Below, piece after piece: positions 7,192 through 12,050 of a stretch of DNA of 64,000 bases. The stretch is from Christensenellales bacterium (GTDB lineage: Bacteria > Bacillota > Clostridia > Christensenellales > JBMNTQ01): assembly GCA_050945835.1 (NCBI GenBank), contig JBMNTR010000001.1, positions 84,090 to 148,089 on the forward strand, given 5' to 3'. The first letter of the stretch is position 1. Every line of letters starts with the position of its first letter. A program made the translations under genes and the position numbers. The notes beneath the pieces were generated by a model, which searched no databases, was not told where the DNA came from, and was given only the letters and a program-made list of their open reading frames with translations.

Positions 7192-7412
7192 GCTGGCTCC
7201 TCTGTGTTTTTATTCAGGCAAGGTTTGCCTGCAATCGATTATACCAATATGTGCCGTTTATATGCAACTGTAATTCATTTTGCTGAAATTCATACAGGCG
7301 GGTTTGGATATGAACACCTGTGCATAGGACGCTTTTTGTGCTAAAATGTAAGACGCAGCCATAACTTTCAGCACGGGGCTGCGTATACTCATCAGACGAA
7401 GAAGGTTGCTAA

Positions 7413-7940
7413 ATGGACGAAAAAAAACTTGTCCTTCGGGCACAAGACGGGGATATGGATGCATTTGACCAGTTGGTCCTTCATTGTTGGGATCATGCGC
7501 TGTTGTTTTGCACGCGTATTTTGCACGATTTCCATGCTGCTGAGGATATTCTCCAGGAGAGCTTTGCGGCCGCATATCTGCACTTAGGCGACTATAACCC
7601 GCAGTATGCGTTTAAAACGTGGCTATACCGCATCATACGTAATCGCAGCATCAGCTATCTGCGCAAAAAGAAACCCTTGAGGATGGAGGATTCCTATGAG
7701 GTGAAAAGCCCCGAATCGGTGGAGGAGCTGTTTTTGCAGGAGGAGCTGGCCAAAGAACTGCACAGCGCAGTTGACCGGCTGCGTTCAAGCCATCAACAGG
7801 TGCTTACGCTGGTCGGCTTTGAAGAGATGAGCTACCGCGAGGCGGCCGAGGTGATGGGCAAAACGGAAGGGCAGGTAAAAGCACTTTTATTTAGGGCGCG
7901 CAGAGCCCTTAAAAGACAGATGGAAGGAGGAGCATCGTGA
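7413..7940 (+). CDS. ECF (group IV) sigma-70 family RNA polymerase sigma factor
   Basis: 175 aa. Region 2 reads FKTWLYRIIRNRSISYLRK. Region 4 HTH reads LVGFEEMSYREAAEVMGKTEGQVKALLFRARRAL. Confidence 0.9.
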   Translation: MDEKKLVLRAQDGDMDAFDQLVLHCWDHALLFCTRILHDFHAAEDILQESFAAAYLHLGDYNPQYAFKTWLYRIIRNRSISYLRKKKPLRMEDSYEVKSPESVEELFLQEELAKELHSAVDRLRSSHQQVLTLVGFEEMSYREAAEVMGKTEGQVKALLFRARRALKRQMEGGAS

Positions 7941-9298
7941 ACAGCTATACGTCCAAACAACAACGCATTTTAAACGGCGTGCATCATAAGATCGAGCTTC
8001 TCCGGGAGCAGGAACAGCAAACGAAGAGGACGCTTGCCCGCCCGTTTAAAAAATATTGGGCCGTTCCTGTTGCGGTGGGTGCAATGGCCTTATTGATCGC
8101 GCTGCTGGCCGCCAACCCGTTTCTTGGACAACAGTTTGATGAGGCTGCGCCGCAGCAGTTGGCGGATGCCGGCGGGGGATACGGCGAACACAGTGCCGCG
8201 CAAGAGGAGGCGGAGCTCGAAGCGATGCCTGAGGACGGCGCTTTTTACGCCCGAGGTGGGGAAGACGAGACCGAACAGTTTTTTGCAGATTCATATGGCC
8301 CTGCAAACCCTGAAGGCACGAACAGCGCGTTTTCATTGGCGCTGTTGAACGCGTCGCTGCAAGAAAAAAAGGGCAGCGTGGCCATTTCACCGGCGGCGGC
8401 GGAGCTGTCGCTGCTGATGCTGTATACAGAAGCCTACGGCGAGACGCAACAGGCGCTTGCCGGCGTGCTTCACATACACAGCGAAGCGGAGGCGTTGGTG
8501 AGAGCCGCCGCCATACAGCATGCCTTTTCAAGGAACGCAGGGCAGCTGGACATTTGGCTTTCATTGGGGGGCAAGAGCGCGTTTGATGCGGAATTTGCTG
8601 AAAGCGCAAGGGAATATTTTGGCGCGCAGACGGATGACGAAAGCGCCCAGAGCCATGAGAAACAGCTTGAGGACGCCGGGCATGCCGAATTAACGGTGTT
8701 CAACGCGGCGAACATGCGCAGTGATGCAGAAAACAGTGCTGCGGACGATACAAGCGATGGACACACAGAGACGGACGGGCAGACGGAGCGCTTGCATCCA
8801 ATCATAGAGGAGATGGATTACGCGTATCTGGACGGGTTGCATTATGTGGCATTGCCCTATACGCAAAACAGCCGGATTATGCTGGTGTTGCCGCAAGAAG
8901 GCACGGATGTGCAAACGGCGGCGGGCATTATGGCGCAAGCCGGGCTGGAGGCGATGCTTGACAATATGGAGCGGCAAACCATACGCTTGCTCATGCCGGA
9001 TTTCGACATAAGCAGCGACACCGATCTCGCACTTGCCTTGCAGGGGATGGGGCTGGGCCGTCTGTTCGACGAAGAGCGCTGTGAACTGAACCTGACGCAA
9101 GAGGGGGCGGGCGGCGGTGTGTATGTCGGGCAAATGATGCAAAGCTGCGGCGTGGGCCTGCGCAAGGCAGGCGCTGAAACGTTAGAGCCAAAGGACGCTG
9201 TGTTTTCCATGGCGCTGCACGAGCCGTTTCTATATGTCGTATACAGTGAGGAAGGTATGGTGCTCGCCTGCGGCTCGGCTGCCGGCGCGCATGAATAA
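7937..9298 (+). CDS. single-pass membrane protein, putative anti-sigma factor with a serpin-like extracytoplasmic domain
   Basis: ATGA overlap with the sigma gene. TM helix at aa 40-64 and acidic linker. From about aa 128-453 there are serpin-like motifs: SVAISPAAAELSLLMLYTEAYGETQQAL, YVALPYTQNSRIMLVLPQEG, LMPDFDISSDTDLALALQGMGLGRLF and HEPFLYVVY. Confidence 0.65.
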   Translation: MNSYTSKQQRILNGVHHKIELLREQEQQTKRTLARPFKKYWAVPVAVGAMALLIALLAANPFLGQQFDEAAPQQLADAGGGYGEHSAAQEEAELEAMPEDGAFYARGGEDETEQFFADSYGPANPEGTNSAFSLALLNASLQEKKGSVAISPAAAELSLLMLYTEAYGETQQALAGVLHIHSEAEALVRAAAIQHAFSRNAGQLDIWLSLGGKSAFDAEFAESAREYFGAQTDDESAQSHEKQLEDAGHAELTVFNAANMRSDAENSAADDTSDGHTETDGQTERLHPIIEEMDYAYLDGLHYVALPYTQNSRIMLVLPQEGTDVQTAAGIMAQAGLEAMLDNMERQTIRLLMPDFDISSDTDLALALQGMGLGRLFDEERCELNLTQEGAGGGVYVGQMMQSCGVGLRKAGAETLEPKDAVFSMALHEPFLYVVYSEEGMVLACGSAAGAHE

Positions 9299-9310
9299 AG
9301 GACGGATAGG

Positions 9311-10105
9311 ATGGAAAAGGGGATCTATACCTGGTTTGGCTATCTGCTCGGACTGGAAGAAAGCCTGCACATGATCAAAGAGGCGGGTTTCGATGCGATC
9401 ATGCTGTGGTGGGGGGATACGCTGGCCGATTACTACGGCACGAAGGACGAGCTCGCCCGTATGGTACGCCAAAGCGGCTTGGCTTTAGACAATATCCATG
9501 TGCCCTATGAGCATGTGAACGGCTTCTGGTCGGACGATGCGGCTGCGGTGGCCGGCTTGCTCACAGTATATAAGGGATATGTGGACGATTGTGTCCGCTA
9601 TGGGTTTCCGGCTATGGTGATGCATCCGGAGGATTACGGAAAGGCTGCGGGCGTCAACGAACGCGGATTGGATGCGTTTGCCGCACTTTGTTCCTATGCG
9701 GAAAAAAAGGGCGTATGCATCGCGCTGGAGAACACCGTGGACAACGCCTATATGAGGTCGGTGCTGGCGCATAAGGGCTGCGAAGGGTTTGCTTTCTGCC
9801 TGGACACCTCGCATGCGCATCTTTCAAAGGACCAACAGGAGTTGATGGCGCTTTACGGCGACAGGCTTGCATATCTTCATCTGTCGGACAACGATGCGTC
9901 ATATGACCAGCATCATCTGATCGGGCAGGGCACTGTCGATTGGGAGGCGTTTGCGCGCCTCTTGAAGAACAGCGGGTTTAACGGGCGGCTCTCCTTGGAA
10001 GTAGTCGCTTCGTCTGTTATAAAAAAGCAGATGGATGCAAAGACATTCTTAGACATGGCCTATGAATCGGTCTGCTGGTTGGAGGCGCTCATAGAAAACG
10101 TGTAA
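9311..10105 (+). CDS. sugar phosphate isomerase/epimerase (xylose isomerase-like TIM barrel)
   Basis: 264 aa. Pattern ...IALENT...DTSHAH...LHLSDN... is typical of the AP endonuclease 2/xylose isomerase-like TIM barrel family. It starts 12 nt after the upstream gene. Confidence 0.8.
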   Translation: MEKGIYTWFGYLLGLEESLHMIKEAGFDAIMLWWGDTLADYYGTKDELARMVRQSGLALDNIHVPYEHVNGFWSDDAAAVAGLLTVYKGYVDDCVRYGFPAMVMHPEDYGKAAGVNERGLDAFAALCSYAEKKGVCIALENTVDNAYMRSVLAHKGCEGFAFCLDTSHAHLSKDQQELMALYGDRLAYLHLSDNDASYDQHHLIGQGTVDWEAFARLLKNSGFNGRLSLEVVASSVIKKQMDAKTFLDMAYESVCWLEALIENV

Positions 10106-10132
10106 TCCGCTCAAAAGAGCATCACACGCGCA

Positions 10133-10173
10133 CCCTTGCGCTGCGTTTGCAGCGCAAGGGTCGTTTATTTTTT
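10133..10173. terminator. terminator hairpin between convergent genes
   Basis: 12 bp stem CCCTTGCGCTGC/GCAGCGCAAGGG with a 4 nt loop (10133-10160), followed by TCGTTTATTTTTT. Confidence 0.8.
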
Positions 10174-11271
10174 ATTGAACATCTGCATGAGCTGCAGCAT
10201 ATTGCCCATACCGCCGCTGCTGCTCGGCATACCGCCCTTCGCGCCGCCCTGCAGCATGCCCATCATGTTCATGAGTTGTGCAGGGTCCATACCGCCGCCG
10301 CTGCTCGGCATACCGCCCTTCGCGCCGCCCTGCAGCATGCCCATCATGTTCATGAGCTGTGCGGGGTCCATACCGCCGCCGCGGCCTTGCGCGCCATCCT
10401 TCGCGCCGCCCTGCAGCATGCCCATCATGTTCATGAGCTGTGCGGGGTCCATACCGCCGCCGCTGCCCGGCATGCCGCCCTTCGCGCCGCCCTGCAGCAT
10501 GCCCATCATATTCATGAGCTGTGCGGGATCCATACCGCCGCCACCACCCTGTGCGCCGCCTTGCATCATATTCAGCATGTTCATCATGGACAGCATGCTG
10601 TTCATATCCATACCGCCATCTGCGGATGAACCGGCGGCGGACGGCGGGGCTTCATACGAAAAGGCTTCAGAAGGCTCCTGCGCCTGAGCGGAATAAGGCG
10701 TGTGTGCAGCATCTTTGTACTGTTCGGTGTAAGGCGTGTGTGCAGAATCCTCGTACTGTTCGGTGTAAGGCGTGTGCGCTACGTCTTCGCAGTGCGCATC
10801 GTCCGCCCAGACATAAGCTTCCTCAGGCGGCTCATATTCCGGTGCGGGGCTGCCATAGGCGGCTGTGTCATATTGTGTGGAATAGTATCGCAGGAGTATG
10901 TCGATGATCCTCTGAAGCTCGTCGCGCGAGGAAGCGTCGCAATAATTTTTAAGCACCTTCAGCAGACCGATTTGGCGCTCCTCATCGCTCAGACCACAGC
11001 CCTGATGTGCGAACTCCATCTGTTTATAGGGAATGCGCTCGCGCAGCCGGTGGAGCTCGATCACCACATAAGCGTCTGTCTGCTGCGGGCCGCTCAGATA
11101 AGGAAACAACGATTCAAACAGCTCGATGGTCTCCACCGAGTCATAAAGCCCAGCGCAGAGAAGCGTGAGCATAAGGCCGGAGGTGGGGCGGTAAGCATCT
11201 GCCCTCGGCGCGGATGGATCGGCTGTCCCTGAGAAGGTTTGACGGGGCAGTCGGTGATAGGCAGGCTTCAC
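10165..11271 (-). CDS. hypothetical protein with a Met/Gly-rich 27-aa tandem repeat C-terminus
   Basis: GTG start 8 nt after AGGAGG. Helical N-terminal domain of about 135 aa, then AHTPYTEQY(E/K)D repeats and 4-5 copies of GGGMDPAQLMNMMGMLQGGAKGGMPSS. Confidence 0.6.
   Translation of the reverse strand: MKPAYHRLPRQTFSGTADPSAPRADAYRPTSGLMLTLLCAGLYDSVETIELFESLFPYLSGPQQTDAYVVIELHRLRERIPYKQMEFAHQGCGLSDEERQIGLLKVLKNYCDASSRDELQRIIDILLRYYSTQYDTAAYGSPAPEYEPPEEAYVWADDAHCEDVAHTPYTEQYEDSAHTPYTEQYKDAAHTPYSAQAQEPSEAFSYEAPPSAAGSSADGGMDMNSMLSMMNMLNMMQGGAQGGGGGMDPAQLMNMMGMLQGGAKGGMPGSGGGMDPAQLMNMMGMLQGGAKDGAQGRGGGMDPAQLMNMMGMLQGGAKGGMPSSGGGMDPAQLMNMMGMLQGGAKGGMPSSSGGMGNMLQLMQMFNKK
10181..10560. repeat. 81-bp tandem repeat, about 4.5 copies, in-frame within the CDS
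   Basis: Units start at 10261, 10342, 10423 and 10504 (CATCATGTTCATGAGCTGTGCGGGGTCCATACCGCCGCC...). Central units are near-identical at the DNA level and the flanking units are degenerate. Confidence 0.9.
10695..10780. repeat. 36-bp tandem repeat, about 2.4 copies, in-frame within the CDS
   Basis: AAGGCGTGTGTGCAG...GTACTGTTCGGTGT units start at 10695, 10731 and 10767. Confidence 0.85.
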
Positions 11272-11516
11272 ACTTTTAACCTCCTAACGTTGGATTCAGT
11301 ATGTCCACATGAAACGAAGATCCATCAAAAGGGCGTGTGTTTGCCCGGGGTGTGCGGATATTCGCAGTCTTTTCAGGCGTTCGCAGCGGCCATGCCGAAA
11401 GAACAGATCCACGAAGCCTTCACAATAGTCTATGCCATAATTTGAAATAGTGAACCGATTCGCAAAACAATGAATATATTGTAGGAAACAGTTTGTTTAA
11501 TAAGGGAGGTATATAT

Positions 11517-12050
11517 GTGAGAAACCTTAGAAACCCGCACAGCCGCCCGCCGGCTAAGCCTATGAATACCAGCAACCGCCCCCCGGCGCCGCAGACCGCT
11601 GCCCCGCAGCAAAGGCCTGCCTCCCAACGCCCGCCGGCCGCAAAAGGCGAACAACATACCGCTGCCGCCCGTCCGCAGGGACAGCGCGTACAGCCCGCGC
11701 AGAACAAGCAGCAGCACCCATACCCGCAGCAGCCCGTGCAGAACAAGCAACAGCACCCATACCCGCAGCAGCCCACGCAGAACAGGCAGGGCGCCGAGCC
11801 GGATTACAGCTGTCTGAACCAGTCGCAGAAGCAGCAATATGACACAATGCAGGAGCAAATGCGGCGTTATGAGGGTAAAAGCGAAGCGGAACTGTTGAAC
11901 GAGATCAAGCGCATGAGCAAAGCAGGGCGGGAGAACGGCACGTTTGATGAAAAAAAGCTCAACCATTTTGCGAACACCATCTCCCCCATGCTCAACGAGG
12001 AGCAGAAACGCCGGCTGCAGCATATCATGCAGCAGATCAACCCGGTCTAA
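11517..12050 (+). CDS. hypothetical Pro/Gln-rich protein with a small helical C-terminal domain
   Basis: GTG at 11517 lies 7 nt after AAGGGAGG; the tracked ORF starts at TTG 11493. PQ-rich N-terminal half with VQNKQQHPYPQQP repeats. C-terminus reads GKSEAELLNEIKRMSKAGRENGTFDEKKLNHFANTISPMLNEEQKRRLQHIM. Confidence 0.5.
   Translation: MRNLRNPHSRPPAKPMNTSNRPPAPQTAAPQQRPASQRPPAAKGEQHTAAARPQGQRVQPAQNKQQHPYPQQPVQNKQQHPYPQQPTQNRQGAEPDYSCLNQSQKQQYDTMQEQMRRYEGKSEAELLNEIKRMSKAGRENGTFDEKKLNHFANTISPMLNEEQKRRLQHIMQQINPV
11700..11789. repeat. 39-bp tandem repeat, about 2.3 copies, in-frame
   Basis: CAGAACAAGCA(G/A)CAGCACCCATACCCGCAGCAGCCC units start at 11700 and 11739, with a partial third unit. Confidence 0.85.

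Follow-up and report, generated by a model that had tools for sequence, protein, structure and literature searches.

Extracytoplasmic function (ECF) sigma factor/anti-sigma factor pairs are a major route by which bacteria sense the outside of the cell, with the sensed signal unidentified for most groups. Among the pairs that operate through regulated proteolysis are sigma-E/RseA (DegS, RseP) and sigma-W/RsiW (PrsW, RasP), and in the sigma-V/RsiV system of Bacillus subtilis and Clostridioides difficile the RsiV ectodomain meets host lysozyme, with stepwise proteolysis and auto-induction of an operon that encodes the countermeasure. Bacterial serpins have been studied as inhibitors of gut proteases with possible relevance to inflammatory bowel disease and, to our knowledge, almost nothing is known of their regulation outside the bifidobacteria. 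Here a 64,000-nucleotide (nt) stretch of Christensenellales bacterium (GenBank assembly GCA_050945835.1, contig JBMNTR010000001.1, positions 84,090 to 148,089), referred to as the window, is described in which three forward-strand genes form one unit encoding an ECF sigma factor, a single-pass membrane protein and a triosephosphate isomerase (TIM)-barrel enzyme (operon 7361-10171). The membrane protein has a serpin-fold ectodomain with the features of an inhibitory serpin altered or missing, termed a pseudo-serpin, and it is probably a sigma-coupled membrane regulator with a pseudo-serpin sensor, belonging to a family that links ECF signalling and surface serpins.

The gene order, the translational coupling, the single-pass partner with a cytoplasmic N terminus and the candidate autoregulated promoter of the AAC...CGT type are shared with sigma-E/RseA and sigma-W/RsiW, and as for sigma-V/RsiV the window sigma gene is placed in an operon with a single-pass partner. 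RseA and RsiW carry an anti-sigma domain of class I, which binds zinc in RsiW, whereas the window protein has a tail of about 40 residues without a detectable domain and a serpin ectodomain. RsiV differs in having a recognised anti-sigma domain, a non-serpin ectodomain, lysozyme as the signal and signal peptidase for site-1 cleavage, whereas the corresponding steps of the window system are predicted by analogy. The clostridial sigma-I/RsgI pairs (PMC10556640; PMC7826278) resemble what is proposed for the window family in having single-pass partners with ectodomains swapped according to the extracellular cue and activation by proteolysis; sigma-I, however, is not a canonical ECF sigma factor, and RsgI differs in its N-terminal domain, which is of a type of its own, and in having carbohydrate-binding or SEAL ectodomains in place of a serpin. 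A gut-bacterial serpin gene under dedicated envelope signalling has a parallel in Bifidobacterium breve, where a two-component system controls a protease-inducible serpin operon and so ties inhibitor output to the environment (Alvarez-Martin et al. 2012, cited in PMC8201313). According to that secondary account, a histidine kinase and a response regulator act there with a separate secreted inhibitor, whereas the window has an ECF pair with the serpin fused to the signalling protein. The siropins of Eubacterium siraeum (PMC5127057) and miropin of Tannerella forsythia (PDB code 5ncs) have the same fold, habitat and broad clade as the canonical relatives of the window protein. They are inhibitors of soluble or lipoprotein type whose loops have the full length, unlike the window protein, which lacks a usable loop. 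Hsp47 (PDB codes 4au4 and 7bee), one of the top structural matches, is like the window domain in having a serpin fold that does not serve protease trapping, but this soluble chaperone has retained helix F and a loop of full length, whereas the window domain is shortened in both regions and tethered to the membrane.

A search of the full-text literature, with incomplete coverage, for serpins together with anti-sigma or ECF sigma factors returned nothing relevant, the texts containing both terms treating them separately. In its main text the paper that reclassified the ECF sigma factors makes no mention of serpins, the siropin paper (PMC5127057) refers to no sigma factors beyond the name of a reagent supplier, and the sigma-serpin architecture is not described in the gut serpinome review or the serpin phylogeny paper. 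Public annotations of the protein read just "serpin family protein" or "serine protease inhibitor." The first-pass annotation of this DNA, made by reading the letters without database searches, knew of no described ECF group with this architecture, and none was found in the searchable literature. ECF/anti-sigma signalling is itself known; what is new here is the serpin as a candidate sensor fold for an ECF/anti-sigma pair, and with it a new regulatory context for bacterial serpins.

The pairing of sigma and serpin genes recurs well beyond the window. Related loci in genomes were collected through alignment of the sigma factor and those in metagenomes through alignment of the serpin, and both were read with home-made hidden Markov models; the metagenome sample is non-random, being made up of the 80 top-ranking relatives of a single serpin type, and the start codons of some fused open reading frames (ORFs) were picked by eye. 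A few of the best representatives have an N terminus laid out like that of the window protein where a signal or lipoprotein leader would otherwise stand. Serpins that carry an N-terminal tail and transmembrane (TM) helix, here termed fused, are found directly after an ECF sigma gene in 12 of the 12 contigs that show the upstream region (the window, L001, L003, L006, L010, L002, L008, L017, L020, L091, L097 and L148). A further protein, P0052 (L007), is uninformative, as only 39 nt of its contig precede the gene. P0002 in L001, a fully syntenic locus, is the closest relative. P0014 (L003-5) and P0109 (L006) follow a 174-175-amino acid (aa) ECF sigma gene with a 4-nt overlap beside obg and yhbY and, because the sigma overlap and these neighbors are the same as in the window, are orthologues of the window locus though the serpin identity is just 27-33%. 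P0022 (L002) and P0070 (L008) are placed after other ECF sigma genes in unrelated contexts, and the genome scan added the fused loci L010, L017 and L020 and the metagenome scan L091, L097 and L148. Many of the loci contributed by the metagenomes, including the split loci L071, L076, L079, L101 and L123 described below, have quite different ECF sigma factors. The junction between the sigma gene and its partner is in every related locus either an overlap of 4-14 nt or a gap of at most about 15 nt.

The paired sigma factors fall into about five lineages, termed A1 (the window type), A2, B, C and D, with between-group identities of at most 33-37%. Fused proteins occur in all five, and split arrangements, in which a sigma gene, a tail-TM protein and a lipoprotein serpin are encoded separately, occur in A2 and B (L012-L014, L018, L019, L033, L071, L076, L079, L101 and L123). 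In L012-L014, L018, L019 and L033 the product of the gene overlapping the sigma stop codon is a single-pass protein of 199-297 aa whose short tail has the pattern M+xxxEYKxEIFRR.... The tails of the split-locus proteins are of the same kind as those of the fused serpins, and no Pfam domain, anti-sigma domains included, is found in these tail-TM proteins. Some split loci contain an extra 335-351-aa lipoprotein between the tail-TM and serpin genes (L018 5084-6136, L033 5084-6139 and L076 1603-2610), itself without a Pfam domain, and tandem arrays of two to three serpin genes are seen on gut/rumen metagenome contigs (L133 404-4447, L078 10-2279 and L007 40-2837). No serpin is present at the other 45, more distant sigma loci from other phyla or Lachnospiraceae (L021-L032 and L034-L066), and three serpins taken as controls, which have a signal or lipoprotein leader, are not adjoined by a sigma gene. 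Since the pairing recurs in many unrelated contigs it is not due to chance, and the relatives show that it arose repeatedly, which suggests a hitherto undescribed circuit that senses or counters proteases. A survey for serpin proteins beside ECF sigma genes elsewhere had been proposed in the first-pass annotation, and such neighbors are found recurrently, with about five ECF lineages.

The 453-aa membrane protein of the window is identical to NCBI entry MGI6174630.1 ("MAG: serpin family protein [Christensenellales bacterium]"), and no NCBIfam family matches it. The coordinates of its parts and of the other features of the operon are collected in Table 1. The overall layout is that of membrane anti-sigma factors in general, with a coupled gene directly after the sigma gene, a single TM helix and a basic N-terminal side. 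The tail carries 9 Lys/Arg residues in aa 1-40, a charge that fits an N-in topology, and contains no Cys and hence no HxxxCxxC motif, in line with the earlier description of about 40 cytoplasmic residues lacking this motif; the single TM helix described at the same time is also retained, with the hydrophobic segment placed at aa 41-59 compared with aa 40-64 in that description. The tail motif KQQRILNGVHHKI is common to the orthologues P0014, P0109 and L010. At the outer face of the membrane a stretch of 26 residues, aa 55-80 (8099-8176; ALLAANPFLGQQFDEAAPQQLADAGG), is identical to P0002 compared with about 72% identity for the whole proteins, and is a candidate processing or interaction site.

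The ectodomain is assigned to the serpins by both sequence and predicted structure. The Pfam Serpin profile (PF00079) matches in two stretches with E = 4.9e-26 and 92.3 bits compared with a cutoff of 27, and sequence matches of the membrane protein to serpins in the PDB reach 1.9e-06. The AlphaFold2 model of aa 120-453, calculated from a 131-sequence alignment, has a predicted local distance difference test score (pLDDT) of 87.1 and a predicted template modelling score of 0.88, and a Foldseek comparison of the domain with the PDB returns serpins only, all in the native state, with E ~1e-21 (1.4e-21 and below) and TM-scores (template modelling) of 0.70-0.76. Manduca serpin K, protease nexin-1, miropin (third-best), conserpin and Hsp47 are the top matches. 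The serpin ectodomain proposed from the letters alone therefore agrees with the profile search and with the AlphaFold/Foldseek result, and all of the segments quoted in its favor are present in the translation. Word-index homology searches return just 2-3 proteins because the membrane protein is so divergent; relatives with the same architecture surfaced when 1.84 billion representatives were scanned exhaustively with HMMER, a scan in which only its own cluster lies below 1e-30 and the next match is at 3.5e-21.

Alignment of the window protein with 17 relatives shows substantial differences in the regions associated with inhibition. The segment from the hinge Gly to the PF motif has 18 residues compared with 28-31 in 16 relatives (10-13 shorter), and the hinge reads GAETLEP compared with the canonical GT(E/K)A(A/G)A(A/V)T, with Leu, Glu and Pro at positions normally taken by small residues. 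The segment comprising helix E, strand 1A and helix F is reduced to 26 residues compared with 43-46 in the relatives (~18 shorter) with the IN.WV..T.G.I motif gone, and the FKGxW motif of strand 3A is swapped for an acidic low-complexity stretch. Residues 114-131 and 154-162 of the AlphaFold2 model are coil or of low pLDDT, and a helix is not seen in the helix E/strand 1A/helix F segment. Neither the canonical loop and hinge nor the intact helix E-F region and FKGxW motif that mark inhibitory serpins is present. Protease trapping by serpins is strictly dependent on loop length and tolerates changes of just one or two residues, so that with these deletions in loop and core it is very unlikely that the window ectodomain is a classical inhibitory serpin. 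A classical suicide inhibitor had been doubted at the outset owing to Pro and charged residues in the hinge, and the short loop and GAETLEP hinge bear this out; the loop shortening stands but not its estimated size of 15-20 residues, and the second deletion, in the helix E/strand 1A/helix F segment, is additional to what had been observed.

Canonical hinges and full-length loops are found in the fused serpins of L002, L008, L017, L091, L097, L148 and L007a and in all of the split-locus serpins. Within the window clade the hinges become progressively less canonical, from SG(T/A)EAHSATG in L003/L010 and TETTASAETH in L006 to the deleted loop of the window protein and L001. The fused serpin of L020 is independently degenerate, having a Pro-rich hinge (SERPAPTKS) and a loop segment of 22 residues compared with 30 (~8 lost), and judged by these hinges the degeneration is lineage-specific. 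Intact fused serpins, partly degenerate ones and the loop-less window protein together provide a natural series for the re-use of serpins in signalling. Two loci, L020 (4519-7384) and L091 (890-3914), have a further serpin gene, of canonical type, after the sigma-coupled fused serpin, and the degenerate fused serpin and canonical lipoprotein serpin of L020 look like a division of labor between sensor and effector.

The degree of degeneration in the window protein raises the question of whether the ectodomain retains a function. Obg and the sigma factor have amino acid identities to L001 of 94.5% and 94.3%, respectively, and the serpin-like protein one of ~72%, and the ratio of nonsynonymous to synonymous substitution rates (dN/dS) for the same comparison is 0.04-0.13 for neighboring genes, 0.07 for the sigma gene, 0.29 (95% confidence interval (CI) 0.22-0.39) for the whole serpin-like protein and 0.32 (95% CI 0.24-0.44) for its ectodomain. 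A protein that evolves about four times faster than its neighbors, with conserved serpin motifs lost, low-complexity sequence inserted and a near-neutral loop remnant (dN/dS 0.92, 19 codons only), is what would be expected of a decaying relic, in which the serpin part drifts without function and the tail and TM helix are kept since the sigma factor needs restraint. The ectodomain ratio is however clearly below 1, aa 291-405 in the C-terminal half of the domain are the most constrained (dN/dS 0.17), the frame is intact in both the window and L001 and the fold is predicted at high confidence. These values indicate that the serpin-like protein is under relaxed but clear purifying selection, and the pseudogene or relic explanation, down-weighted by dN/dS, is improbable. 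Purifying selection and the retained fold would also suit an active inhibitor working through an unusual short loop, tight-binding, non-suicide and surface-tethered, and between the two close relatives no part of the C-terminal half varies as much as the loop remnant, a pattern typical of specificity loops. An inhibitor of this kind is hardly credible given the loop deficit relative to all 16 measured relatives, the Leu-Glu-Pro sequence in a hinge where small residues are needed, the truncated helix E-F region and the shift of one or two residues in loop length that serpin biochemistry allows.

A different explanation concerns the whole protein, which could be mere cargo, that is a surface-anchored (pseudo)serpin transcribed by the sigma factor with the N terminus forming a plain signal anchor and the sigma factor controlled otherwise. 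The lack of a recognisable anti-sigma domain is consistent with this, as are the surface lipoproteins that the serpins of this clade normally are and the position of the split-locus serpin as a downstream operon member and not the sigma partner. On the other hand, the gene overlapping the sigma stop codon in the split loci always encodes a tail and TM helix, the fused serpins bear that unit in place of a lipoprotein leader, all tail-TM serpins follow a sigma gene whereas most lipoprotein serpins do not, and the operon encodes no other candidate regulator. Cargo is on balance an unlikely role for the membrane protein.

Several observations count against the sigma-coupled regulator as well. The tails of six proteins give zero matches to zf-HC2, RskA or other anti-sigma Pfam families, even at E <= 10, the class I anti-sigma domain of the RsiW/RseA type (often with HxxxCxxC) is absent from the membrane protein, and a tail of ~30-40 residues is below the length of classical anti-sigma domains. 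The tail and TM helix show no extra constraint, with a dN/dS of 0.23 compared with 0.32 for the ectodomain and overlapping CIs. Of the 12 fused cases, five represent syntenic orthologues and do not count as independent, and in the lipoprotein-serpin clade a sigma gene lies within 3 kilobases (kb) upstream in only 6 of 47 informative loci. The weakest point is that the window protein has lost the obvious bait loop, which leaves a protease signal least secure for this member. The wider proposal that all clostridial serpins are sigma-linked is rejected on the 6 of 47 informative metagenome loci. The distribution of the loci indicates that the sigma link is a feature of a subset, tied to the tail-TM unit, and this is the strongest argument for that unit as the sigma partner.

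The preferred reading, a sigma-coupled membrane regulator with a pseudo-serpin sensor, places the partner as a type II single-pass protein in which the cytoplasmic helix of ~40 residues and the TM helix would constitute the sigma-coupled unit. We infer both an anti-sigma function of this unit, which would keep the sigma factor at the membrane, and protease sensing. The ectodomain would be a pseudo-serpin, with the serpin fold kept and the inhibitory machinery lost, derived from membrane-tethered inhibitory serpins that in gut Clostridia are partnered by ECF sigma factors. At the level of the family, on the analogy of sigma-V/RsiV, sigma-W/RsiW and sigma-E/RseA, attack by an extracellular protease would strip the ectodomain, the intact loop, where present, being the likely target, and loss of the ectodomain would lead to intramembrane proteolysis of the tail-TM unit and release of the sigma factor. 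The released sigma factor would then auto-induce the operon from the AAC-N16-CGTATA promoter and more surface serpin would be made. In the window lineage protease trapping would have been lost and the ectodomain kept as a sensor or scaffold, the TIM-barrel enzyme being the putative sole non-regulatory output of the operon. A more specific scheme, put forward tentatively and on the whole doubtful, has the serpin ectodomains of gut Clostridia as suicide-substrate protease sensors in which a luminal protease attacking the reactive loop is trapped or cuts the loop, causing a conformational change or ectodomain loss followed by intramembrane tail-TM cleavage, sigma release and more serpin; such sensors would have been assembled independently with about five ECF lineages in fused and split forms, with the window and L020 proteins as sensor-specialised pseudo-serpins. 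If true, suicide-substrate sensing would make a self-contained "protease alarm plus antidote" circuit. The recurrent sigma-serpin link presents a testable hypothesis with proteolytic attack as the signal and inhibitor production as the response.

The region upstream of the sigma gene contains an autoregulatory-type ECF promoter candidate with an AAC-type -35 and a CGT-type -10 element (ATAAC-N16-CGTATA), the CGTATA element ending 25 nt before the sigma start codon. AAC-N16-CGTATA has one occurrence in the 64-kb window compared with 0.21 expected by chance, and the related pattern (AAC/GAA)-N15-17-[CT]GTATA is present at fixed distances <100 nt upstream in 12 of 17 related sigma genes with a background of 0.0036 per 100 nt. 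The motif resembles the sigma-W-type consensus, and the candidate promoter fits positive autoregulation of the sigma gene. Further upstream the TGcTAAAAT block is conserved in L001, was missed by the consensus promoter scan and, at low confidence, may give basal transcription. An inverted repeat, CGCAGCC (7354-7360) and GGCTGCG (7377-7383), flanks the -35 element, extends into the -10 element and is conserved in L001; it could be an operator or the leader hairpin of a transcript from the upstream TGcTAAAAT element.

The sigma protein matches Sigma70_r2 at aa 32-87 (9.6e-15) and Sigma70_r4_2 at aa 115-166 (1.5e-12) in Pfam as well as TIGR02937 sigma70-ECF (110.8 bits compared with a cutoff of 42.9), all in agreement with its original designation as an ECF sigma factor. 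With the sigma-2 and sigma-4 domains only and region 3 missing it has the composition of group 4. None of the named NCBIfam equivalogs reaches its cutoff with the sigma protein, the best similarities, to SigM and SigW, being far below theirs. The 4-nt overlap with the partner gene at 7937-7940, previously given as ATGA, is present but reads GTGA, formed by the GTG start of the partner gene at 7937 and the TGA stop of the sigma gene at 7938-7940. No second serpin and no second sigma factor of the ECF type encoded at 7413-7940 is found in the 64-kb window.

The TIM-barrel gene begins 12 nt past the membrane-protein gene, a gap given correctly in the first-pass annotation, and the strong terminator is found only after it. 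The best named similarity of the encoded protein is to the cobamide-remodelling phosphodiesterase CbiR and is below the cutoff (47.7 bits compared with 105). L001 has the gene as well; L006 and L010, the next orthologous loci, lack it, and there the gene following the serpin is on the opposite strand. From this arrangement it is predicted to be co-transcribed here and in L001 and is placed outside the conserved module. Its suggested role as the regulated target is thus unsupported as a general feature, and a conserved regulon member is ruled out by the absence from L006 and L010.

Table 1. Features of the sigma-serpin operon and its upstream region, in window coordinates
Feature	Position	Strand	Description
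Possible housekeeping-type extended -10, TGcTAAAAT	7339-7347	+	Read from sequence; weak -35-like TGTGCA at 7319-7324
ECF-type promoter candidate	7361-7387	+	ATAAC 7361-7365, 16-nt spacer, CGTATA 7382-7387
ECF (group 4) sigma factor, 175 aa	7413-7940	+	Sigma70_r2 and Sigma70_r4_2, TIGR02937
GGAGGAG ribosome-binding site of partner gene	7926-7932	+	Inside the end of the sigma gene, read from sequence
Single-pass membrane protein with serpin-fold ectodomain, 453 aa; candidate anti-sigma factor/sensor	7937-9298	+	
Cytoplasmic tail, aa 1-40	7937-8056	+	Predicted helix with motif KQQRILNGVHHKI, then basic stretch
TM helix, aa 41-59	8057-8113	+	Kyte-Doolittle 19-residue window score 2.31; sole hydrophobic segment
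Extracellular juxtamembrane region and acidic linker, aa 60-125	8114-8311	+	Read from sequence
Serpin-fold domain, aa 126-453	8312-9295	+	AlphaFold2 model, Foldseek
Degenerate core segment, aa 226-290	8612-8806	+	Shortened helix E/strand 1A/helix F, FKGxW replaced
Reactive-centre loop remnant, aa 409-422 (RKAGAETLEPKDAV)	9161-9202	+	14-residue connection of strand 5A and strand 1C in model
Xylose-isomerase-like TIM-barrel protein, 264 aa, third operon gene	9311-10105	+	AP_endonuc_2 1.1e-31
Intrinsic terminator, operon end	10132-10171	+	13-bp stem with 9 G-C pairs, then T-rich tail; only strong one

Two repeat-containing ORFs are placed beyond the operon. A 368-aa ORF on the reverse strand (10165-11271) converges on the operon terminator, has no Pfam match and contains a Met/Gly-rich unit of 81 nt (27 aa) repeated 4.2 times in tandem (GGMDPAQLMNMMGMLQGGAKGG). 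The second, a 185-aa Gln/Pro-rich ORF on the forward strand (11493-12050) with no significant Pfam match, contains 2.5 copies of a 39-nt repeat (..NKQQHPYPQQP..).

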